DNA of 64,000 nt from Anaeromyxobacter sp. (GTDB taxonomy: Bacteria > Myxococcota > Myxococcia > Myxococcales > Anaeromyxobacteraceae), in contig JASGJN010000022.1 in assembly GCA_049840735.1 (NCBI GenBank), positions 640,001 through 704,000 on the forward strand, read 5' to 3'. Position numbers and translations under genes: made by a program. Under the pieces are notes generated by a model. It was not told where the DNA came from, made no database searches, and was given only the letters and a program-made list of their open reading frames with translations. Below, in pieces: positions 43,001-57,327 of the stretch (the stretch's first letter is position 1; every line of letters begins with the position of its first letter).

Positions 43001-44348
43001 ATGGACCCCGGCCTCGGCCCCCTCGAGTTCATCAAGCGGCCGCCGCGCAGCGCGGCGGTGCTGTTCGGCGTATTCACGCTGGTCGCGGTCGCAGGCGTGG
43101 CCTGGACGGGCAGCCACTTCCGGACCGCCCAGGACGCGCCGGCATTCCTGGGGAGCCTGGTCGCTGCCGTCGCGCTCGGCACGCTCCTGTGGATTGGCGG
43201 GTTCCACCTCCTGGCGCTTCCACCGCGACGGCGTGGTGGCGCGGCGGATGGGGAAGACCACCGTGCTGCGCTACTCGGACGTGATTGCGTACGCCTACCA
43301 GGAGCTCGAGGGCGGCGTGCGGCTGCCGGACGTCTGGGCGATGACGCTCCACGGCCGCCGCGGCGAGCGGGTCCAGGTCCGGGTGCAGCCGGACCTGAAG
43401 CGCGAGCTGGAGCTGCCGGCGCTCCACGCTCGGCTCCTCCCGACGCTGGTGGCGCAGCTGCGCAACCTCTCGCCCGAGGGGCTGGAGTGGGGGCCGCTGC
43501 GGCTGCGGCGCGAGGGGCTGCGGCTGCCGGATGGCCGAATCGTGGCCTACGGCCCGGAGCTGGGCACACGCAGCGCGACGTCGGCCGGAGGGCGCGGGCT
43601 GGAGGTGCTGTTCCGCGGGCAGCCGGTGGCGACGCTCGAGCCTGGCACGCTCAACCTGCACCTGGGCTTCGAGCTGCTGCGGGAGCGGGTGTCGGGGCGG
43701 GCCGCCCAGGACGTGGCGCCGCGCGCGACCGCGGAGGCCAGCGCCGCGCGAACGGCCAAGGACGTCCGCGAGCGGCAGCTGGGCTGGGTGCTGGCCGTCT
43801 TCTTCCTGGTCGCGACGGTCGGGGAGGGCGCGCTGTACGTGAGCACGCAGCGCGAGCTGCGCGCGCTGGGCGAGGCCCCACGGCCGATGACCGTCGCGGA
43901 GGCGGCCCAGCTCGGCGAGGATCTGCAGTGGGTGGAGCTCTCCGAGGGGCTGGAGGTGAGGTGCGATCAAGGGCTCCAGAAGTCGAGCCAGGGCTCGGTG
44001 CTGGACACCAGCTACCTCGCCAGCGACGAAGCGGGCGCGCGCTGGTTCTACGTGAAGCTCAAGGGCGAGGCGTCCTGCGAGCAGGCCAGCGCCCCTGGCC
44101 TGGTCGGGCTCGCGAAGCGGGCGTCGTCCGGGCTGCCGGACTGGCTGAGGAAGCGCGGGCTCGCGGTCGAGCCCGGGGTCCAGCAGCTCGTGGAGCTGGA
44201 GGTGGACGGCGGACCGGAGACGGTCGGGCGGGGCCTCTGGATCTACGGCGGGGGAGCGGGGTTCTTCGCCCTGCTCCTGGGCTTCTCGATCTACGTGATC
44301 GTCTCGCGCCGCCCGCGCCCGGCAGCAGGCGGGCGCGCCCGAGCCTAG
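43001..44348 (+). CDS. Hypothetical multi-pass membrane protein (frameshift at about 43202)
   Basis: Two N-terminal TM helices in ORF 43001, continued in frame 43194-44348 with two more TM helices. Confidence 0.6.
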
Positions 44349-44860
44349 GAGCTGTCCCGAAATTCGAGCTTGAGGTTGTAGAGGAAGGCCACGGCGGCGA
44401 CCGTGGATCCGAGGTGTCGCCCCGCCGCCGGTGGTCCCGGAGGACGCGCCAGTCTTTGAGGCGAGCGAGGACGTGCTCGACCCGGGCGCGCTGTTTGCGG
44501 TGACGGCGCCAGGCGGCGTCGCGGACGATCCGGTTGTGACGGAAGACCGGGATGCGGAGGCCTCGGACTCCCCGGTATCCGCCATCGGCGAGGACGACAC
44601 GGTGGCCTCGGCAGAGCGCCTCGACGGCGGAGCCGCGGAAGTGGACGGGGTCGTTCCGATTGCCCGGGCCACCGGCGGAAGTGTCAAGGACGCGACAATC
44701 GCGGCTCCGCACCAGCACCTGGGCGTTACATGACCAGCGGAAGTTCTTGGAATTCGCTGCGCGGGCGGGCTCTCGGGAGCAGCGGGTGGGTCGGGAGAGC
44801 GTGGGCGGGGATCACCTTCGACCCACGAACGCCTTGGGCGCGCCAATCCACTGAACAAGA
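44345..44860 (-). mobile_element. Remnant of an IS5-like (DDE_Tnp_4-type) transposase
   Basis: SKNFRWSCNAQV...PGNRND...LADGGYRG...RARVEHVLARLKDWRVLRD; after a frameshift VAAVAFLYNLKLEFRDSS*. The 5' part is decayed. Confidence 0.75.
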
Positions 44861-44913: not shown

Positions 44914-45360
44914 GTGGTCCGAAACCGGCAGCGCCCTTGGACCCGCCGGCCCGAGGACGGGGTGTCGGTGCTCCGGCTCGCACTGGACCTCCACGACCCG
45001 GTGCAGCGACGACGGCTCGAAGGGATCTTCTCCGGGGCCTACCAGGTCCGGCGAGCGCTCCAGCGGACGGCGCGGGACCGGGTGCGGGCCTACTGGGCGG
45101 CCACGAAGGCACGGGACCGGAGTGCCTCCGAGACCCGGGCCAGGCTCGGCCTCTCGCGCGAGGCGCTGGAGCAGGCGGCCTACGCCCACCTCGACGCGGC
45201 GCCCCACCTCCGACGGAACGTCACCAAGGCGCTGGCGATGCACCTCGCCGACTCGGTCTGGACGCCGGTGGAGCGCCACCTGTTCCCGGACACGAAAGGC
45301 AAGCGGCAGGGACTTCTCCGCGTCGGGCGCTGGTTCGACTTCTCACGGCTTCCTGGCTTC
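44914..45360 (+). pseudogene. Truncated N-terminal part of a large TnpB-like / transposon-associated protein
   Basis: VSVLRLALD...RRALQR...RAYWAA...LGLSREALE...TKALAMHLADSVW...RHLF...VGRWFDFSRLPG resembles, from memory, N-termini of long actinobacterial TnpB-like proteins. Similarity stops at about 45355 and no RuvC motifs follow. Confidence 0.5.
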
Positions 45361-46516: not shown

Positions 46517-47060
46517 GGGCTTCGACTCCGCGAGCCCTGCGGGCTCGCTACGCTCAGCCCGAACGGTGTTGGCAAGGTCGGCCTTCCACGGCTCTTCTGC
46601 AGGCTCAGCCCGAACGGTGTTGGCAAGGTCGGCCTTCCACGGCTCTTCTGCAGGCTCAGCCCGAACGGTGTTGGCAAGGTCGGCCTTCCACGGCTCTTCT
46701 GCAGGCTCAGCCCGAACGGTGTTGGCAAGGTCGGCGTTCCACGGCACTTCTGCAGGCTCAGCCCGAACGGTGTTGGCAAGGTCGGCCTTCCACGGCACTT
46801 CTGCAGGCTCAGCCCGAACGGTGCTGGCAAGGTCGGCCTTCCCGGCTCTTCGGCAGGCTGAGCCCGAACGGTGTTGGCAAGGTCGGCCTTCCACGGCACT
46901 TCTGCAGGCTCAGCCCGAACGGTGTTGGCAAGGTCGGCGTTCCACGGCACTTCGGCAGGCTGAGCCCGAACGGTGTTGGCAAGGTCGGCCTTCCACGGCT
47001 CTTCGGCAGGCTCAGCCCGAACGGTGTTGGCAAAGACCGGCCTCCCCACGCCCTTCGGTC
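46517..47060. repeat. REP-like element followed by a 51-bp tandem array (9 full units plus a degenerate 10th)
   Basis: Unit GCTCAGCCCGAACGGTGTTGGCAAGGTCGGCCTTCCACGGCTCTTCTGCAG starts at 46552, 46603, 46654, 46705, 46756, 46807, 46857, 46908, 46959 and 47010. Confidence 0.92.
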
Positions 47061-47575: not shown

Positions 47576-48932
47576 TCAGCCCTTCCAGCCCGCCTGCACC
47601 ACCACCACGTTGGCGCTGCCCTCCACGCTGCCCACCAGCCGGTCGCCGGTGGCGCCGGGCTGGTCGATGTGCGAGGTGCCCAGCATCTGCACCCGCTGGT
47701 ACACGGCGCCGAGGGAGAAGCCCTTGCCGAAGGAGGCCTTGCCGCCGGCGCCCACCAGGAGCGAGTCGCGCTCGGGCAGCGTGGCCTGGCGGTACTTGTC
47801 GGTGATGGGGCTCTGCTCGTAGGCGGCGCCGCCGAACAGGTCCAGCCAGGGCTTCGCCGCCCAGATGGCGCCCAGCGAAGCGCGGAAGGCGTTCCGGAAG
47901 CCCTGCTTCGACTGGACGTCGAGCCCGTTGGCCGGGTCGTCCGGCTTGAGCTCCACCGTGTCGAAGCGGCCCCAGGTCGTGTACTGGAAGGCGGCGTCGA
48001 GCGTCACGCCGTGGCCCAGCGCCTGCTCGGCGCTGACGGTGAGGAAGTCGGGGAAGGGGAGGTCCACCGACGAGCCGGGCTCGCCGGTGAACCCGAGCAC
48101 GGCCAGCGCGGCGGGGTCGAAGCTCTGGTGCCCCTTCACGTGCCCCTCGCTCTCGTGCCGGTAGGCCACGCCGAGGGTGGTGCCGGCGGCGGGCTGGAAG
48201 GTGAGGCCGGCGGTGATCGTCCAGCCCCAGCCGTCGCCGGTGAAGCGGGCGTAGCCGTCCGAGCCGCCGGGCGTGAGCCCCTGGCCGGCGCAGGTGCCGA
48301 GGGGATCGGGATCGCCGGCCCCGGCCGCCTGGGCCACGCAGATGGAGCCCAGGTCCAGCGCCTGCCCGATGGTGGCGTGGTCGCGCCGCGCGGCCGCGCT
48401 CACGCCGACGGCGAAGCGCGGGTCGATGCGCCAGGCCAGGGCCGGGCCGAAGGAGAGGGCGGTGATCTCCCGACTCGACCCCCTGGTAGCGGCCGTAGAA
48501 GCCGGCGTCGCGGCCGTAGTCGGTGGCCTGGCCGAAGGGCGCGGCCACGAAGAGCCCCAGCGCCAGCTGCGGCGAGAGCCGGTGGGAGGCGAAGAGCCAG
48601 GGGGAGCCGCCGGTGCCGGCGCCGTCGGCGTTCGCGCCCGGCAGCGGCATGCCGCCCTCCAGCAGCGTGGAGCCGCCGTCGGTGTAGGGGGCGGAGGCGG
48701 CGATGAGCTGCCCGCCGACCACCACCTGCGTGCCGTCCAGCGACGCCAGGATGGCTGGGTTGGCGAACAGGCCGGCCGGGTCGCGGGTGGAGGCCGCGGC
48801 CGCGCTGGCGGTGCCGTTGGAGTAGAGCCCCTGGATGTCGAGGGCGAAGCCGTTGGCCCGGGCGGCGGCCGGCGCGAGCAGCGCCACGGCGAGGAGCAGG
48901 GAGCAACGGAGCGAGGCCGTGCGCTGGTGCAT
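47576..48932 (-). CDS. FadL/OmpP1/TodX-family outer-membrane transporter (frameshift at about 48469)
   Basis: Signal peptide then NGFAL..., conserved NPA (LFANPA), APFGQATDY, QYTTWGRFD, YEQSPI...TLPERD. Confidence 0.88.
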
Positions 48933-49010
48933 GGCGAGTCCTCTCGTCGGCGGCGCCGCCGGGTCATGCCGGCGGGGCGGTGCCCGTTGGACCCGAAGGC
49001 TAGAGGGTCA

Positions 49011-49029
49011 ATCTGTACAACGTCAAGAT
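49011..49029. promoter_or_regulatory. Putative TetR operator upstream of the FadL-type gene
   Basis: Reverse complement ATCTTGACGTTGTACAGAT; imperfect palindrome matching 49703-49721 at 14 of 19 positions. Confidence 0.6.
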
Positions 49030-49688
49030 GACCGGTCGGAGCGTGGGGTCTTCCGGCCCCGGGGGCGCGCCCGGCGGGCGGGCGGCTCCGGCTCGCCGCA
49101 CAGCTGCGAGGCCAGGGCCGCCTGCAGCAGCTGCCGGGGCGGGGTGCGGGCCAGGATCGTGTGTGGGATCTGGCGGTTGGTGAGGAGCGAGACCAGGCCG
49201 TGGGTCACCGACCAGAGCCCCACCGCCACCGTCTCGGGCGGCCCGGCCGCCACCACGCCCGCCGCCTGGCAGCCGCGCACCAGGTCCACCAGCGCCTCGA
49301 AGCTGCCGTTCGCCATGGTCATGTAGTCCGGGTGATCGTGCTCCTGCTCCATGGCGTTGGAGAAGGTCACCCGGTAGAGGTCGGGCTGCTCCAGCCCGAA
49401 GCGGACCGTCTCCCAGGCGGCCTCCTGCAGCTGCCGGCGCGGGTCGCCGGCGTGCTTGCGGACCGCCCCGGCGATCCGCTCGCGCACGACCCGGAGCCCC
49501 TCGGTGGAGATGGCCGCCACCAGCGCCTCCTTGTCGGGGAAGTGCGCGTACGGGGCCGAGTGGCTGACGCCGGCGCGGGCGGCCACCCGCCGGAGGGTCA
49601 GGCTCCCCACTCCCTCGTGGGCCAGCAGCTCCGCGCCGGCGCGGATCAGCGCGTTCTTGAGGTCACCGTGGTGGTACGGCTTCCGCAT
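49023..49688 (-). CDS. TetR-family regulator (WHG-like C-terminus)
   Basis: YHHGDLKNALI...LTLRRVAARAGVSHSAPYAHFPDK; WSVTHG. Confidence 0.95.
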   Translation of the reverse strand: MRKPYHHGDLKNALIRAGAELLAHEGVGSLTLRRVAARAGVSHSAPYAHFPDKEALVAAISTEGLRVVRERIAGAVRKHAGDPRRQLQEAAWETVRFGLEQPDLYRVTFSNAMEQEHDHPDYMTMANGSFEALVDLVRGCQAAGVVAAGPPETVAVGLWSVTHGLVSLLTNRQIPHTILARTPPRQLLQAALASQLCGEPEPPARRARPRGRKTPRSDRSS

Positions 49689-49702
49689 GGGTCGCTCCGC
49701 CG

Positions 49703-49751
49703 ATATTGACAGTGTCTAGATCGTTCTCTAACGTCCAGACCACGTCAACCT
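49703..49751. promoter_or_regulatory. Putative TetR operators in the divergent promoter region
   Basis: ATATTGACAGTGTCTAGAT at 49703-49721 (core GACAnTGTC) and a weaker copy at 49733-49751 (reverse complement AGGTTGACGTGGTCTGGAC). Confidence 0.65.
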
Positions 49752-49765
49752 ACCGCGGGGAGCGC

Positions 49766-50451
49766 ATGCCGTCCATGGTCCCGAGAGGCTGCAGGTGGTG
49801 GAGGCCGCCCGGCGCCTGTCCGCCAGGGGTTACCTGGTGGCCACCGGCGGGAACCTGTCGGTCCGCCTGCCGGGCCAGGCCGCCTTCGCCATCACCCCCA
49901 CCAACCTCGACTACGGCCAGATGACCGCCGAGGACGTCTGCGTCCTCGACCTCTCGCTGACGAAGCTGGCCGGCGAGCGGGTGCCCTCCATCGAGAGCTC
50001 GCTCCACGCCGCCATCTACCAGGCGCGCCCGGACGTGAACGCGGTGGTCCACACGCACCAGGCCTACGCCAGCGCGCTGGCCCTGATCGACGCGCCCATC
50101 CCCGCGCTCTTCGACGAGCAGGTCCGCTTCCTGGGGCGCTCGGTCGAGATCGTCTCCTACGGCCCCTCCGGAACCGGCGTGCTGCGCCGCGCCGTCGCGC
50201 GCGCGGTCCGCAGCCACGCCAACGCCTACATCATGAAGAACCACGGCGCCGTCTGCCTGGGAACGGACCTGACCCGCGCCGAGAACAACGTCGAGCTGCT
50301 GGAGAAGTGCGCCCTCGCCTACCTCCTGGCGCTCTGCACCGAGCGGAAGGTCAGCAGGATCCCGCTGGTCGTCCGCGAGGTGGCCTTCCACAAGCTCCGC
50401 TCCGACCAGCGCCAGGCCGAGGCGGAGGCGCAGTCCCGAGGCACGCCGTGA
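49766..50451 (+). CDS. Class II aldolase/adducin family protein
   Basis: GGNLS, ITPT, PSIE..LH, VVHTH, NHG. The true start is probably ATG 49766 (GGGGAG RBS) with a 1-bp deletion; the intact frame runs from 49795. Confidence 0.9.
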
Positions 50452-51941
50452 CCAAAGCCCCCGCCCTGGCCTCCGCGGACGCCGCGGCCTCGGCCGCGCA
50501 GCGCTACGCCATCTCCAGCTACCACGACACCGACGAGGTCTACGCCCGGCTGAAGGAGCTGATCCGCCAGCCGCCCCGGCCGCTCCGGCGGGAGCGGATG
50601 CAGCAGGTGCTGGAGCACTTCGAGACCCGCCTGGCCGGTTCGCGCCGCCTCTCGGACGAGGCCAAGCGCTACATCCCGGGCGGCGTGCAGCACAACCTGG
50701 CCTTCAACCACCCGTTCCCGCTGGCCGTGGCGCGCGCCGAGGGGGCGCACCTCTGGGACGTGGACGGGAACCGCTACATCGACTTCCTCCAGGCGGGCGG
50801 GCCCACCGTGCTGGGCTCCAACCACGAGCCGGTCCGGCGCCAGGTGATCGAGCTGCTGGAGCGCTGCGGGCCGGTCACCGGCCTGCTGCACGAGTACGAG
50901 GCGAAGCTGGCCGCGCTGGTGCAGCGCTTCATGCCCTCCATCGAGCTGTTCCGGATGCTGGGCTCGGGCACCGAGGCGGTGATGGCCGCCGTCCGCGCCG
51001 CGCGCGCCTTCACCGGCAGGAAGAAGATCATCAAGGTGGGCGGCGCCTACCACGGCTGGAGCGACCAGCTGGTCTACGGCCTCCACGTGCCCGGCACCGG
51101 GCGGCTGGAGGCGGCCGGCATCCCGCGGGCCGCCAGCCGGCACACGCAGGAGTTCTTCCCCAACGACCTGGGCGCGCTGCGCCGCAAGCTCCGGCTCAAC
51201 CGGCTGCGCGGCGGGACCGCGGCGGTGATCCTCGAGCCGCTGGGGCCGGAGAGCGGCACGCGGCCGGTCCCGGCGGACTTCAACCGCGAGGTGCGCGCGC
51301 TCTGCGACGAGTTCGGCGCCCTGCTCATCTTCGACGAGGTGGTCACCGGCTTCCGCGTCGGCCTGGGCGGCGCGCAGGGCTACTTCGGCGTGAAGCCCGA
51401 CCTGACCGTCTTCGGCAAGTGCATCAGCGGCGGCTATCCCATGGCCGGCGGCGTCGGCGGCCGCAAGGACGTGATGCTCCGCTTCGCGGCGGGGATCGGC
51501 GGCATCGGCGAGCGCGCGTACGTGGGCGGCACCCTCTCGGCCAACCCGCTCTCCTGCGTGGCCGGGTACCACGCGCTGCTGGAGATGGAGCGGCTGGACG
51601 CGCCGGTGGTGGCGGGGCGCGCCGGCGACCGGCTCACGCGCGGCTTGCAGGAGATCATCGAGCGGAGGAAGCTGCCCTACGTGGCCTACAACCAGGGCTC
51701 CATCGTCCACCTCGAGACCTCGGGCGTCATGCTGCTGGACCTCCGCAACCCGCTCAAGCTGGCGCGCGAGCTCAAGCCGCGGAAGCACATGCTGGAGGAG
51801 ATGGGGGCGGCCTACCTGGCGGCGGGGCTGGTCACGCTGGCCGGCAGCCGCATGTACACCAGCATCGCCGACACCGACGCGGTGATCGACGACGCGCTGG
51901 GCCGCTTCGACGAGGTGCTCTCCGGCGTCGAGGGCGCCTAG
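50448..51941 (+). CDS. Class III PLP aminotransferase (GSA-aminomutase-like)
   Basis: WDVDGNRYID, SGTEA, YHG, LIFDEVVTGFR, FGKCISGG. Confidence 0.9.
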   Translation: MTKAPALASADAAASAAQRYAISSYHDTDEVYARLKELIRQPPRPLRRERMQQVLEHFETRLAGSRRLSDEAKRYIPGGVQHNLAFNHPFPLAVARAEGAHLWDVDGNRYIDFLQAGGPTVLGSNHEPVRRQVIELLERCGPVTGLLHEYEAKLAALVQRFMPSIELFRMLGSGTEAVMAAVRAARAFTGRKKIIKVGGAYHGWSDQLVYGLHVPGTGRLEAAGIPRAASRHTQEFFPNDLGALRRKLRLNRLRGGTAAVILEPLGPESGTRPVPADFNREVRALCDEFGALLIFDEVVTGFRVGLGGAQGYFGVKPDLTVFGKCISGGYPMAGGVGGRKDVMLRFAAGIGGIGERAYVGGTLSANPLSCVAGYHALLEMERLDAPVVAGRAGDRLTRGLQEIIERRKLPYVAYNQGSIVHLETSGVMLLDLRNPLKLARELKPRKHMLEEMGAAYLAAGLVTLAGSRMYTSIADTDAVIDDALGRFDEVLSGVEGA

Positions 51942-51944
51942 CGC

Positions 51945-53542
51945 GTGGCCGCCCGGCGCGTCACGCTGGCGCTCGACCTGGGCACCTCCGGCGTGAAGGT
52001 CGCGCTGGTGGACCAGGACGGCGCCGTCCTCGGCTTCGAGGGCGTGCCGGTCGAGACCCACGTCACGCCGGACGGCGGCGCCGAGCAGGCGCCGGAGGAC
52101 TGGTGGCGCGGGTTCCTGGAGGCCTCGCGCCGGCTCCTGGCGCGCGGGCTCTGCGCGCGCGGCGAGGTGGCCGCAGTCTGCTGCTCCACCCAGGGCGAGG
52201 GCACGGTGCCGGTCGACCGCGACGGCCAGCCCCTGATGCGCTGCATCCTCTGGATGGACATGCGCGGCGCCGGGCCGCTGGCCCGGCAGTTCCGCGGCCG
52301 GCTCAACCTGGCCGGCGCCTCGGCCTGGCGCGTGCTGCGCTGGATCCGCCTCACCGGCGGGATGCCCTCCATGACCGGCAAGGACCCCGCCGGCCACATG
52401 CTGCTGGTGCGCGACCGCTTCCCCGAGGTCTACGCCCGCACCCACAAGTTCCTGAACGTCCTCGACTACCTCAACCTGCGGCTCACCGGCCGCTACGTGG
52501 CCACCCACGACTCCATCCTCACCTCCTGGGTGACCGACAACCGCGACCCCGACCGGATCCGCTACCACCCGGCGCTGCTGCGGGGCTGCGGCATCGACGC
52601 CGACAAGCTGCCGGAGATCGTCCCCTGCACCGCCGCGCTGGGGCCGCTGCGCCGCGAGGTGGCGGACGCGCTGGGGCTGTCCGCGGAGGTGCAGGTGGTG
52701 GCCGGCGCCATCGACAACACCGCCGCCGCCGTCGGCTCCGGCGCGGTAGCCGACCGGGCGCTGCACCTCTACCTGGGCACGTCCACCTGGATGGCCGCCC
52801 ACGTCCCCTGGAAGAAGACCGACCTGGGGAGCGCGCTGGCCTCGGTCCCCTGCGCCCTGCCCGGGCGCTGGCTCCTCACCGCCCTGCAGGCCACCGGCGG
52901 CGGCAACCTGGCCTTCCTGCGCGACCGGATCCTCTATCACCGCGACGCGCTGCTGCAGGAGGCGGGCGTCCCGGACGTCTTCAAGATCATGGACCGGATG
53001 GCGGCCGAGGTGCCGGCCGGCGCCAACGGCGTCCTCTACACGCCCTGGATTCTGGGGCGAGCGCGCGCCGGTGGAGGACCGGACGCTGCGCGCCGGCATC
53101 CTCAACCTCTCGCTGGGCAACGACCGCGCCGACCTGGTGCGCGCCTTCCTGGAGGGCGTGGCCCTCAACTCGCGCTGGCTCCTGGGGCCGGTGCAGCGCT
53201 TCCTGGGCGGGCGGGTGGAGCGGCTGCGGCTGGCCGGCGGCGGCGCCGCGTCCGACGTCTGGTGCCGAGATCTACGCCGACGTGCTGGGCGCCGAGGTGG
53301 ACCAGGTGGAGGACCCGGTGCAGGCCAACGCCCGCGGCGCCGGCCTCATCGCCGCCGCCGGGCTGGGCTGGCTGGACCTGCGCGAGGCCGGGGCGCGCGT
53401 GCCGGTCCGGCGGACCTACGCGCCCACCGCGGCGCACCGCGCCGTCTACGACGAGCGCTACGCGGTCTTCGTGGACGCCTACCGCCGCCTGCGCGGCCTC
53501 TACCGCCGGCTCAACGCCCGGCCAGCCCCCCCGGAGCCCTGA
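51945..53542 (+). CDS. FGGY-family (xylulokinase-like) kinase (frameshifts at about 53050 and 53267)
   Basis: LDLGTSGVK, WMDMR, YLGTS, GERAP, RAFLEGVA, GGGAAS..W. Confidence 0.88.
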
Positions 53543-54761
53543 TGGCCACCGCCGTCCTCGCCGCGCCGGCCTACCCGCGTTACCGGTTCGTGGTGCTGGC
53601 GGTGTTCATGCTGGTCAACCTGACCATCCAGATCCTCTGGAGCTCGTACGCCACCATCACCGGGCTGGCGGCGCGCTTCCACGGGGTGAGCGATCTCGCC
53701 ATCGGCCTGCTGGGGATGGTCTTCATGATCGCCTTCGTGCCGCTCTCCTTCCCGGTCTCGTGGGCCATCGACCGCTTCGGCTTCCACCGCACCGTCGGGC
53801 TGGGCACCGTCCTCATGTCGGCGTTCGGCCTGCTGCGCGGGCTGGCCGGCGCCAGCTACCCGCTGGTGCTGGTGGGCTCCATCGGCATCGCCGCGGCGCA
53901 GCCCTTCCTGCTCAACGCCTGGACCACCGTGCCGGCGCGCTGGTTCCCGCCGCAGGAGCGGGCCACCGCGGTGGGCCTGGTGACCTTCGCCAACCTGGTG
54001 GGCACCGGCATCGGCTTCGCCCTCACGCCGGCGCTGGTGGCCCGCGCCTCCATCCCCTCGGTGCAGCTGCTCTACGGCGCCATCGCCGCGGTCTCGGCGC
54101 TGCTCTTCCTGGCGCTGGCCCGCGAGGCGCCGGCCGGCCAGGCCGGCCCGCTGGCGCCGGAGGCGCGGGCGCTGATGCTGGACGGGATCCGCCACGCCTT
54201 CTCGGTTCCGTCCTTCCGGCGCTACCTGGCGGTCTCGTTCGTGGGCATGGGCGTGTTCAACGGGCTGGCGCTCTGGATCGAGCCCATCATCCGGCCGCGC
54301 GGCTTCGGGGAGGAGCAGGCCGGGACGCTGGGCGCGGTCATGCTGGTGGGCGGGGTGGTGGGGGCGGTGGTGATCCCGCCATCTCCGACCGGCTCCGCCG
54401 GCGCAGGGTGTTCATCCTGGGCGGCATGGCGCTGGCCATCCCCGGCCTGCTGGGGCTGGCCTGGGCCACGACGCTGGCGGGGCTCCTGGCCGCGGTCTTC
54501 GGCCTGGGCTTCTTCCTGGTGGCCACCAGCCCGGTGGGCATGCAGTACGCCACCGAGATCACCCGGCCCACGCCGGAGGGGACCTCCAACGGCGTGGTGC
54601 AGCTGGCCGGCCAGCTCTCGGTGGTGTTCGTCTACGTGATGGAGGCGCTGCGCGGCGCGGACGGCTCCTTCACGCTGTCGCTGGTGCTGTCCGCCGCCGC
54701 GCTGGGGCTCTGCGCCCTGGCCGCCACCCGGCTCGTGGATCCACCCCGCGAGCCCAGCTGA
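53542..54761 (+). CDS. MFS transporter (frameshift at about 54376)
   Basis: About 12 TM segments, IDRFG, WFPPQERATA, SDRLRRR. Confidence 0.88.
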
Positions 54762-54773
54762 GCTGGAGACGCC

Positions 54774-55685
54774 ATGCGCCCGAGCCTGCCCCGGCCGACC
54801 CTCGCCCTGCTCCTGGCGGCGCTGCACCTCGCGCCGGCCCCCGCCGTCGCCGAGGAGGCGCAGGCGCCCCAGGGGCAGCACTGCATGGGCGAGCCGCGGA
54901 GCCGGGTCCTGCTCTCCAGCACGCTGGTGGCGCAGTCCGAGCCCATGGGGCTGGAGGAGCAGCTGCAGCTCGGCGCCTGCCGGCCGCTGCTGCGCACGCC
55001 GGGGATCCTCTTCGACCACACCAACGTGCAGGCCGGGCTGATCGTCTACGCCTCGCCGGTCTACGCCTTCCCCGGCGCCTTCGTCTCCATCGCGCCGCTC
55101 TCGGTGCTGGAGCTGCGCGCCGAGGCGGCGCCGTTCTGGGTCTGGCCCCTCGGCCTGGACGGCGCCGGCTACTTCCCGCGCGGCAGCGCGGACGAGCAGT
55201 TCGAGGACCTGCCCGCCGAGCAGGCGGAGTCGGCCAGCGGCTGGACCGCGACCTTCACCGGCACGCTGCAGGCCGAGGTGGAGCTGGCGCCGGGGCTCAC
55301 GCTCGCGGCGGTGGACGTGCTGTCCTGGTCCTTCTGGGACGTGGGGGACGCGCCCTACTACTACCACCCGCGCTACGACTTCACCTTGGCGCGGGAGGAC
55401 TGGGTGGGGAAGAACCAGGCCTTCCTGCTGGTGGGCCACCGGTTCTCGCCGACGCTGGTGGTGCGGGCCGGCGTGAACGACGAGTGGATGGGCTCGGCCC
55501 GGGCCGGGATCACCCAGAACATCCTGGCCGCAGCGCTGACCGCCGACGTGGCCGGCTGGCCGCGCCGGGGCGACCTCCTGCAGCCGTTCCTGCGCGTGGG
55601 CGGCTTCACCCACCACGAGTTCCGCACCGGGCTGGCCGTGCTGGGCGGCGTGGGGGTGACCTGGGACGTGACGCCCGGGCGGTGA
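54774..55685 (+). CDS. Exported protein, possibly an outer-membrane beta-barrel
   Basis: Signal peptide, alternating aromatic-rich strands, C-terminal GGVGVTW; 12 bp after the MFS stop. Confidence 0.55.
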   Translation: MRPSLPRPTLALLLAALHLAPAPAVAEEAQAPQGQHCMGEPRSRVLLSSTLVAQSEPMGLEEQLQLGACRPLLRTPGILFDHTNVQAGLIVYASPVYAFPGAFVSIAPLSVLELRAEAAPFWVWPLGLDGAGYFPRGSADEQFEDLPAEQAESASGWTATFTGTLQAEVELAPGLTLAAVDVLSWSFWDVGDAPYYYHPRYDFTLAREDWVGKNQAFLLVGHRFSPTLVVRAGVNDEWMGSARAGITQNILAAALTADVAGWPRRGDLLQPFLRVGGFTHHEFRTGLAVLGGVGVTWDVTPGR

Positions 55686-55805: not shown

Positions 55806-57155
55806 CTACAGCGGGATGGCCTTCCCGTTCACCTCGAGCGCACCCTTGGTGAAGCGCAGCTTGCTCTTCACCACCGCGCCGTCGCGCACCACGAAGCCGC
55901 GCGACACGGCCTCGTCGATGAGGCGGTCGGCCGCCTCGGGGTCGGCGGGCACGCCGGCCTCCTCGGCCTTGCTGGCCGAGATCTTCTGCACCCAGGCCAC
56001 CGGGACCACCGCGTCGGCGGTGACCGTGGCCTTGGAGATCAGGGCCATGGGCGGCTGGCCGCCGTCCTCCTCGGTCACGCCCTTCACGGCGGCGTCGAAG
56101 GAGAACTCGCCCTGCTGGCCGTCGATCACCACCACCAGCTTGTCCACGGCGTAGTGCGGCTCGCGGGACAGCAGCTTCAGCAGGTCGGGCTGGATGGCCT
56201 CGAACAGCTCGCCGGGGCCGGACGCATTCTCCCGCTCGGAGAGCGCCGCCGAGAGCTTCTTGTAGGTGACCGCGTCCACCCGGTCGATCGAGAGGTGCAG
56301 CTCCACCTTGTCGATTCGAGAGGTCGTTCACGCGGCCGCTGCCGGTGAAGCTGCTCTGGCTGGCCAGCAGCCCATCCTCGATCACGTTCTTGAACCCGAA
56401 CTCGAGGTCCTTGAAGGCCACCGCGGTGCCCTTGGTGGGTGCCGCCTCCGGATCGAACGGCGAGGCCTTGGCCGGCTCGCTGAAGTCGAACAGCTCAAGC
56501 TCGCCCTCGCCCTGGCCCGCGCCCAGGTAGTCCTGGCCGGTGGGCTCCGAGACGAGGTGGAGCTTGAAGCCGCGCAGCGTGGCGCGGCCGCCGCCGTGCT
56601 CGGCGAACTCGAACCCGGGGACCGCGACGGTGTACTCGATCGGATGGCCGAGGCCGCGCCCGTGGAACTCGCCGGTGATCCCGTCCCACTTCAGGCGATC
56701 GCCGTCCTTGTCGTAGACGAAGGCAGGGCTGTCCAGGTGGGCGGTGAAGTGGCCGGTCAGGCCCACCACGGTGCGCAGGGTGAGCGGGGACTTCTCGCCC
56801 ATCACCTCGGTCACCTTCTCCTTCACCTCGTCCGGCACCACCAGCTCGGTTCCACCACCGCGCGCCCCAGCGTGCGGAACCCAGGCAGCGGCCCGTTCAG
56901 GATCCGGCTCCGGAAGGTGATGGCGGGGGAGCCGTCGGCCGCCTTCTGGTAGCGGACGGTGACGGTGGAGGTCGAGCTGAGGAAGCCGCGCTCGAACCCG
57001 CTCTCCTCGATGATCAGCCCCGGCACCTCCTCCTGCAGCTTGTCCAGCTCGGCGGTGAGCCCGCGCTCGATGGACCTGCTCATGTACAGCGTGGTGGAGA
57101 GCCAGGCCAGGGCCAGGAACGCCACCACGGCCCCTGCGACGACGATCTTCTTCAC
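55806..57155 (-). CDS. YdgA/DUF945-like protein (frameshifts at about 56850 and 56315)
   Basis: VKKIVV plus TM anchor, FERGFLSS, NGPLP, C-terminal LEVNGKAIPL. Confidence 0.75.
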
Positions 57156-57327
57156 GTACTCCCCCTCGAGCGCGGCGCGCTCCCGGTGTGGATAGGGGGG
57201 AGAGTCTAGCCCGCCGCGGCGAGCCCCGAGGCGACGCCGGTCAGGCGCAGGTGCGGCGGTTTGTCCTGTGTCGGAGGGACGCCGGCCACGGGCGCACCGG
57301 GATCGCGGACGCACGGTCCGGATCCGC

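Follow-up and report, generated by a model that had tools for sequence, protein, structure and literature searches.

A TetR-linked aldolase, aminotransferase and FGGY kinase operon in Anaeromyxobacter as a candidate route for degrading phytosphingosine-type bases

We analysed a 64,000-nt stretch of Anaeromyxobacter sp. (contig JASGJN010000022.1, positions 640,001 to 704,000; this whole stretch is the window below), which belongs to a genome of 6.67 Mb that is 94% complete. Between positions 47576 and 55685 lie a tetR gene, a gene for a FadL-type outer-membrane channel and, divergent from tetR, a run of genes for an aldolase, an aminotransferase, a kinase, a transporter and an exported protein. 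We think it probable that these form a TetR-repressed uptake and catabolic unit which would convert a phytosphingosine-type base to dihydroxyacetone phosphate (DHAP) and a fatty aldehyde. The features are as follows:

47576-48932, minus strand: FadL/TodX-type outer-membrane channel gene (Toluene_X, PF03349, by Pfam), in two halves with a break near 48480
49011-49029: candidate operator site 2, reaching into the final codons and stop of tetR, ~80 nt 5' of the fadL start (matrix rank 1, 22.8 bits)
49023-49688, minus strand: tetR (TetR_N and TetR_C_33, by Pfam), with orthologues of 43-67% identity in 13 related loci
49703-49721: candidate operator site 1, overlying a TTGACA -35-like hexamer (matrix rank 2, 22.2 bits)
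49766-50451, plus strand: class II aldolase of FucA type (PF00596, E 1e-47), its start codon at 49766 out of frame with the body
50448-51941, plus strand: class III pyridoxal phosphate (PLP) aminotransferase of the glutamate-1-semialdehyde (GSA) aminomutase-like branch (PF00202), reading frame intact
51945-53542, plus strand: FGGY kinase (FGGY_N/C, by Pfam), two frame breaks
53542-54761, plus strand: major facilitator superfamily (MFS) transporter (MFS_1, by Pfam), FLVCR/SLC49-like, one frame break near 54378
54774-55685, plus strand: open reading frame (ORF) with a signal peptide, a predicted outer-membrane beta-barrel by structure-model comparison, with zero Pfam or NCBIfam matches

The plus-strand junctions are tight (overlaps of 4 and 1 nt, gaps of 3 and 12 nt), and together with the family assignments they bear out the initial annotation of this DNA, which had described a tight aldolase-aminotransferase-kinase-MFS-exported-protein operon divergent from tetR; its exported protein does have a signal peptide and is now refined to a predicted barrel. 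Four of the genes contain frame breaks (fadL at ~48480, the aldolase start at ~49780, the kinase at ~53050 and ~53269, the MFS gene at ~54378). Because frame breaks are also present in 15 of the 69 entries matched elsewhere in this assembly, beyond the cluster (two being the same gene), including genes that we take to be pheS, pheT and hemL, the breaks in the operon and in fadL are probably assembly errors, and a pseudogene reading of the operon is unlikely.

The same annotation had proposed that a 19-bp palindrome at site 1 recurs at site 2, upstream of fadL. Site 1 is self-complementary at 14 of 19 positions, and site 2 matches site 1 at 13 of 19 positions directly and at the reported 14 of 19 against the reverse complement of site 1. 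As a raw mismatch count this leaves site 2 unremarkable, since six places in the genome reach 14/19. A cleaner form of the palindrome is present once or twice by the divergent promoter in each of the 13 related loci that have a TetR orthologue, 21 sites in total, and a matrix built from these sites, with both window sites left out, ranked site 2 first and site 1 second across the whole genome, the third match reaching 12.1 bits; with a GC-weighted background the two window sites scored 30.8 and 29.9 bits and the third match 16.2. Moreover, in a held-out check, four of four further Chloroflexota loci with a TetR orthologue had sites of 19-31 bits in the same gap, and no operator site was found in three loci without the orthologue. 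Because of the matrix ranks and this held-out test, we consider the fadL-proximal site very probably a real operator that puts fadL under the same TetR, which gives computational support to the earlier proposal that the regulon takes in fadL. In the window tetR is codirectional with fadL; the orthologues in the 13 related loci are mostly divergent from the aldolase. Site 1 covers the -35-like hexamer at 49706-49711, followed 17 nt on by a weak -10-like hexamer (49729-49734, seen by eye); a promoter scan gave no sites at its thresholds, below which this by-eye promoter falls.

The operator matrix is also a handle for locating further regulon members. A scan of metagenomes (at least 125 stretches) gave many matches on contigs that are poor in genes and low in GC, or at distant TetRs accompanied by RPE65 or ABA4-like genes; among the matches listed, those with TetR orthologues flank the aldolase, and no fadL or ceramidase gene was found as a regulon member. 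Distant TetR_C_33 regulators with the same palindrome before RPE65-family oxygenase genes and an unknown 190-aa gene were seen in L089, L094, L098, L100, L107, L145, L148 and L158, and a 21-bit operator-like site lies at L030:15195 within a weak endoglycoceramidase-like GH5 gene near the cluster. Since TetRs of only ~29-45% identity share the palindrome, at genes resembling carotenoid oxygenases, it identifies a regulator subfamily and not a ligand.

A search with the aminotransferase gave at least 591 confirmed genome matches, of which the best 80 were taken as loci, many of them short; a set of 89 aminotransferase loci was queried for gene presence by tblastn, including the poorly gene-called L063. 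Judged by these homologues, the aminotransferase-aldolase-kinase core is widespread. At E < 1e-100 at least 7887 of 8000 candidates scored are relatives of the aminotransferase, many of them publicly labelled glutamate-1-semialdehyde aminomutase. The genome matches come from Chloroflexota, Actinomycetota, Pseudomonadota, Bacillota, Acidobacteriota, Spirochaetota, others and one archaeal assembly, while occurrence within groups is patchy (2/36 same-genus genomes, 3/400 other genomes of the phylum, 10/301 in the phylum of L001). Intact loci are present in Ornatilinea apprima (L001) and Actinoplanes palleronii (L042), and Dyella solisilvae is a cultured carrier. In the best 80 loci the aldolase is present in 70, the FGGY kinase in 59, both in 53 and either in 76; an MFS of the window type is present in 20 and a TetR of the window type in 11, and some TetR-family regulator lies at most three genes away in 36, which we count in favour of our reading. 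In actinomycete loci the aldolase and aminotransferase are fused.

Membership of the aminotransferase in the class III PLP family is clear (PF00202, 173 bits against a cut-off of 30.5), and its PLP residues Asp296 and Lys324 are invariant in 43 homologues. It is closer to GSA aminomutase (E 2e-73) than to FumI (E 3e-29). At the same time, it falls below both curated hemL cut-offs (301 of 398 and 288 of 527), and the HemL motifs SPVRAF and SWG are replaced by QHNLAF and AGG, so we rejected an identity as HemL; a closer hemL-like gene sits on another contig of the genome.

The aldolase is nearer to FucA of E. coli (E 1e-25) than to AraD (3e-18) or RhaD (0.009), and it keeps the catalytic Glu73, the zinc ligands His92, His94 and His155 and the phosphate-site residues Gly28-Asn29 and Ser71 (FucA numbering). 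It shows neither the Asp at the Glu73 column nor the ADYF segment of AraD/SgbE (L-ribulose-5-phosphate 4-epimerase). On the other hand, it scores 80 of the 400 bits required by the curated FucA model TIGR01086, and its aldehyde pocket differs from that of FucA: in 6/6 single-domain homologues aligned, Tyr113 is replaced by Asp and Phe131 by Ser or Pro (Asp and Ser in the window). According to the excerpt available of PMC3962088, Phe131 and Phe206 wall the lactaldehyde site of FucA, and the F131A variant admits bulky aldehydes. The sequence thus suggests FucA-type chemistry in an enzyme that is not FucA, with an opened aldehyde pocket. In deaminated D-ribo-phytosphingosine, C3 and C4 have the D-ribulose configuration (by Cahn-Ingold-Prelog and Fischer reasoning), which FucA cleaves and RhaD does not; the FucA type of the window enzyme matches this stereochemistry, which favours a sphingoid-type substrate.

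Proteobacterial and acidobacterial loci, and many from clostridia, have two aldolase copies, one with the metal site and the second retaining only the FDEQ/LDDM segment and the C-terminal helix, and the second copy may form the neighbour-subunit half of a single active site. Such duplication or fusion into a metal-bearing and a catalytically dead copy was seen in L022-L025, L028, L030 and L033-L035 and in the clostridial loci L047-L080.

Two loci depart from the usual gene set: L019:7093-11464, in Dehalococcoidia, has an FGGY kinase, a RuBisCO-like protein and the aminotransferase without an aldolase, and in L020 the kinase adjoins the aminotransferase, likewise without an aldolase. In gut clostridia (L050, L052, L053, L056, L057, L060 and L072, e.g. 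L052:2937-7782) the aminotransferase-aldolase pair has near it a second class III aminotransferase, a split transketolase and two proteins of unknown kind, of which one is SCP2-like; this extra set might act on 2-amino-1,3-diols that have no 4-hydroxyl, by a transaminase-transketolase route.

The strongest clue to a sphingoid-type substrate, and one that we favour, comes from the kinase. Against the curated XylB model its N-terminal piece scores 161 of 380, and with this cut-off missed and the protein in a separate clade, we rejected identities as XylB, FucK, RhaB, AraB, LyxK or GlpK. A homologue of sphingosine-1-phosphate (S1P) lyase, matching at E 3.5e-129 an enzyme with demonstrated S1P lyase activity (PMC5234717; this paper, PMC11398299 and PMC3136697 are likewise cited from excerpts throughout), is present in 3/80 aminotransferase loci of two lineages (L012, L013 and L073), and in L073 kinase, lyase, class 3 aldehyde dehydrogenase, aminotransferase and aldolase form a single run. 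When the lyase was searched for across 301 genomes of the window's phylum, 116 carriers were found, and in 29 of 29 Myxococcota lyase loci examined (from the best 30, L211-L240, with L222 left out) an FGGY match lies directly beside the lyase. The kinases of 25 of these 29 loci are 45-51% identical to the same-genus orthologue of the window kinase, compared with 33-37% to another aminotransferase-linked kinase. In a quick tree of 37 rows (branch support by the Shimodaira-Hasegawa-like approximate likelihood ratio test, SH-aLRT, without bootstrap; FastTree agrees), the window kinase and all nine lyase-linked kinases fall in one 21-row clade with SH-aLRT 100, and all 31 non-E. coli rows split from six E. 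coli sugar kinases with SH-aLRT 97. The window-type and lyase-linked kinases also have in common a basic-hydrophobic segment of 33 residues, which is 21-27 residues long in the E. coli kinases. The lyase-adjacent FGGY kinase is, on this view of its neighbourhood, a candidate non-canonical long-chain-base kinase. On whether the kinase would act before or after transamination, the loci point in different directions: L012, L013 and L018 have two kinase paralogues, which suggests distinct substrates, keto and amino, whereas L073 has only a lyase-type kinase for both branches.

The transporter genes were assigned with the help of intact relatives. The two MFS halves are 66% and 58% identical to the intact orthologue of L001, which among solved structures is strongly similar only to FLVCR1/2 (E 3e-39; next family E 3e-8). 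Trp33 and Gln120, which we take to be ligand-site residues of FLVCR, are invariant in nine homologues, and the column of a presumed ligand-site Tyr holds Asn. We call the MFS FLVCR/SLC49 (choline-ethanolamine)-like, a putative amino-alcohol carrier. Both FadL halves belong to PF03349 (42 and 117 bits, cut-off 29.7) and the protein is similar to E. coli FadL structures (E 6e-12), while it does not reach the NCBIfam FadL equivalog (58 of 585); an intact orthologue in G030 covers both halves (70% and 56%). For the last ORF, the Atlas model (predicted template modelling score, pTM, 0.80) gives TM scores of 0.8 to Myxococcota clusters and ~0.6 to barrel families, predicting an outer-membrane barrel of an unnamed Myxococcota family. 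A relationship between this barrel and the secreted protein that follows tetR-MFS in G020 was rejected (no similarity, E 0.31). Secreted unknown proteins with similar N-termini, by eye, are encoded at L256:6244-7089 (after the FadL orthologue, G008) and L084:5696-6496 (after tetR-MFS, G020).

In the neighbourhoods of the homologous loci 1118 genes were called and 251 representatives scanned, the counts standing without a matched control set. A class 3 aldehyde dehydrogenase (E 2e-95 to human fatty aldehyde dehydrogenase) accompanies 7/80 loci, and an SCP2-like module 7/80, these being clostridial; in the top Atlas cluster, SCP2 accounts for 10%. Seen in single cases only were a phospholipase C, a weak endoglycoceramidase-like GH5, a patatin, MMPL, PAP2 and an acyl-CoA dehydrogenase, and beside 2/80 loci lies a D-threonine-aldolase-like gene whose fold appears to be that predicted for SphD. 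The co-occurrence of lipid genes (lyase, class 3 dehydrogenase) in homologous operons, which the initial annotation had suggested looking for, means that its long-chain amino-polyol idea survives.

A sphingoid-type substrate is favoured because of the kinase clade, the lyase, class 3 dehydrogenase and SCP2-like neighbours, the FLVCR-like MFS, the opened FucA-type aldolase, the TetR neighbours and the operator-linked FadL; the part of this support that comes from kinase, lyase, class 3 dehydrogenase, MFS and aldolase is independent of fadL. From these genes we infer the substrates and reactions, the direction of transport and the repression by TetR. FadL, the downstream barrel or both would let a 4-hydroxylated long-chain base, for example phytosphingosine (a 2-amino-1,3,4-triol with an alkyl tail), across the outer membrane, and the FLVCR-like MFS would carry it over the inner one. 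The aminotransferase would convert the C2 amino group to a ketone, and the FGGY kinase would phosphorylate C1 before or after this step; we lean slightly towards transamination first, with the kinase acting first nearly as probable. Their joint product would be a 5-alkyl-5-deoxy-D-ribulose 1-phosphate, which the FucA-type aldolase would cleave to DHAP and a fatty aldehyde (pentadecanal from a C18 base), and, until its ligand binds, TetR would occupy the -35 region of each transcription unit. Homologous loci suggest that this is probably a widespread gene set for degrading the plant and fungal sphingolipid backbone with enzymes of sugar-metabolism type. With slightly less than even confidence, we extend this to a lyase-independent sphingoid-base route across many bacterial phyla and one archaeal assembly, in which sugar-pathway folds would have been adapted to lipids: an FGGY long-chain-base kinase clade common with the lyase route, a GSA-like transaminase, an opened FucA aldolase split in several lineages into metal-bearing and pocket-forming subunits, and a gut-clostridial transaminase-transketolase-SCP2 branch for bases without the 4-hydroxyl.

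A number of observations weigh against a sphingoid-type substrate. The FadL-type channel and the last-ORF barrel were found in none of the 89 related loci. Because of this absence, and because FadL orthologues in three same-genus genomes sit elsewhere with no operator (best 1.6 bits) and two same-genus operon carriers lack this FadL, fadL is best described, from these comparisons, as a local recruit into the regulon, and we rejected it as a conserved pathway member. The ceramidases that had been expected nearby did not appear: five ceramidase-like queries found none in the 89 loci, strong PF04734 matches (E < 1e-40) occur in 3/50 aminotransferase-carrying genomes (8/50 at E < 1e-10), and we dropped a ceramidase link, the one PF04734 match in the window genome being weak, on another contig and without an operator among the top matrix matches. 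The parallel expectation of aldehyde dehydrogenases held for 11/80 loci counting any kind, leaving 69/80 and the window cluster itself without one, and class 3 enzymes also oxidise aromatic and steroid aldehydes, as their top matches indicate. No S1P lyase was found in the 94% complete genome. As to the kinases, the substrate-site motifs differ (QWSG/QES in lyase-linked, QGEG/QAT in window-type enzymes); the 29 lyase loci are not independent, because they come mostly from one family; and sphingoid-base activity of the lyase-linked kinases is itself presumed. The hydrophobic moment of the shared segment did not separate them from sugar kinases (0.47-0.94 against 0.24-0.68) and was dropped as a lipid marker, as the ranges overlap. 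Glycosidases flank L008, L030 and L259, which fits sugars as well as glycolipids.

Could the substrate of the same chemistry instead be a 2-amino-polyol that is small and polar, such as a 2-amino-2-deoxy-pentitol, a 2-amino-2-deoxy-hexitol or an amino-tetritol, with fadL under the operator by chance or for another solute? FGGY kinases and FucA-type aldolases are sugar enzymes, the closest curated models, xylulokinase and ribulose-1-phosphate/fuculose-1-phosphate aldolase, are all matched at scores under their cut-offs, short amino-alcohols are transported by FLVCR carriers, and the conserved Asp-acidic pair in place of FucA Tyr113-Met114 could bind polar groups; the absences of FadL and of a dehydrogenase just described and the pairing with a RuBisCO-like protein in two Dehalococcoidia loci point the same way. 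Such a substrate would, however, leave unexplained the clade of lyase-linked kinases, the lyase within the same operons, the SCP2-like and class 3 dehydrogenase neighbours and the predominance of TetR over sugar-type regulators, and no sugar ATP-binding cassette or phosphotransferase system family recurs among the 251 neighbour representatives, so that we regard it as unlikely, while giving it real weight. In a second alternative, some lipophilic amino-polyol other than phytosphingosine, be it branched, unsaturated, aromatic or carrying a steroid, or else a toxin or antibiotic that is a sphingoid analogue, is detoxified. FumI shows a class III aminotransferase using pyruvate to remove the amino group of a long-chain amino-polyol (PMC3136697), the top structural match of a neighbouring class 3 dehydrogenase is a steroid aldehyde dehydrogenase, and the distant TetRs with the same palindrome control carotenoid/stilbene-oxygenase genes. 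FumI is only distantly related to the window enzyme, though, hydrolysed fumonisin lacks a C1 hydroxyl to phosphorylate according to the excerpt of PMC3136697, and the breadth of carriers, from soil, sediment and gut, suggests a natural compound that is abundant, which makes detoxification of this kind quite unlikely. We see very little chance that the protein with the aldolase fold works instead as a decarboxylase, an epimerase or a dehydratase, or that the unit is biosynthetic, joining DHAP and an aldehyde to an amino-polyol: the curated scores for OtnC decarboxylase (102 bits), PRK06557 epimerase (113) and MtnB (88) do come near those for aldolases (118 and 116), all being below cut-off, but FucA position 73 holds Glu and not the Asp of AraD/SgbE, and the kinase, the importer-like MFS and a repressor on the -35 region fit catabolism, with no phosphatase as a conserved member.

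The phytosphingosine-type route thus proposed has partial counterparts in known systems. Like the E. coli L-fucose/D-arabinose route (FucI, FucK, FucA) and the 5-deoxyribose DHAP shunt, it would use a kinase to make a ketose 1-phosphate and a class II aldolase to release DHAP and an aldehyde, and the window aldolase best matches FucA and the entries 6BTD/4C24. Unlike the fucose route, the window has an aminotransferase in place of the isomerase, a kinase outside the FucK/RhaB branch, an aldolase with Tyr113 and Phe131 replaced, a TetR rather than FucR, and a FLVCR-like carrier with outer-membrane channels. With the route of sphingosine kinase, S1P lyase and fatty aldehyde dehydrogenase (in eukaryotes, with bacterial lyases in PMC5234717 and PDB 3MAD) it would share the substrate class, C1 phosphorylation and a fatty aldehyde product, and lyase and class 3 dehydrogenase accompany the core in some loci; the window kinase, however, has an FGGY fold, and cleavage would fall between C3 and C4 after deamination, giving DHAP, whereas the lyase cuts C2-C3 to give phosphoethanolamine. 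The Pseudomonas aeruginosa SphR/SphA/SphBCD system likewise handles sphingoid bases and has an outer-membrane uptake gene under the same regulator (PMC11398299), but it relies on a periplasmic oxidase, a cytochrome c and an AraC regulator, none of which is in the window. FumI of Sphingopyxis MTA144 resembles the window aminotransferase as a class III enzyme that takes the 2-amino group off a long-chain amino-polyol (PMC3136697), and differs in its distant sequence, its substrate and the lack of a kinase-aldolase step; HemL is the closest characterised relative in fold and sequence, apart from the cut-offs and motifs already given.

In the literature searched, with most subscription papers and supplements outside the search, we found no description of this pathway; the operator-linked FadL and the kinase clade common to lyase-linked kinases are new here. 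If correct, it would give sphingoid bases a second exit route, S1P lyase being called the only known enzyme that irreversibly removes them in the excerpt of PMC5234717, and thousands of proteins that at present bear the label glutamate-semialdehyde aminomutase would gain a function. It would also bear on how plant and fungal lipids are recycled in soil, sediment and gut, and on how an antimicrobial lipid is tolerated; the part of PMC11398299 available states that what bacteria make from sphingosine is unknown and that further systems must exist.

The surroundings of the cluster show a few further features. Just past fadL, at 46552-47033, lie 9.5 copies of a 51-bp unit with 95% identity, and 5' of this repeat array, at 44059-44718 and 44914-45300, are remnants that look transposase-like by eye. 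On the other side, a DUF945 gene spread over three frames occupies 55806-57314 and is convergent with the operon.

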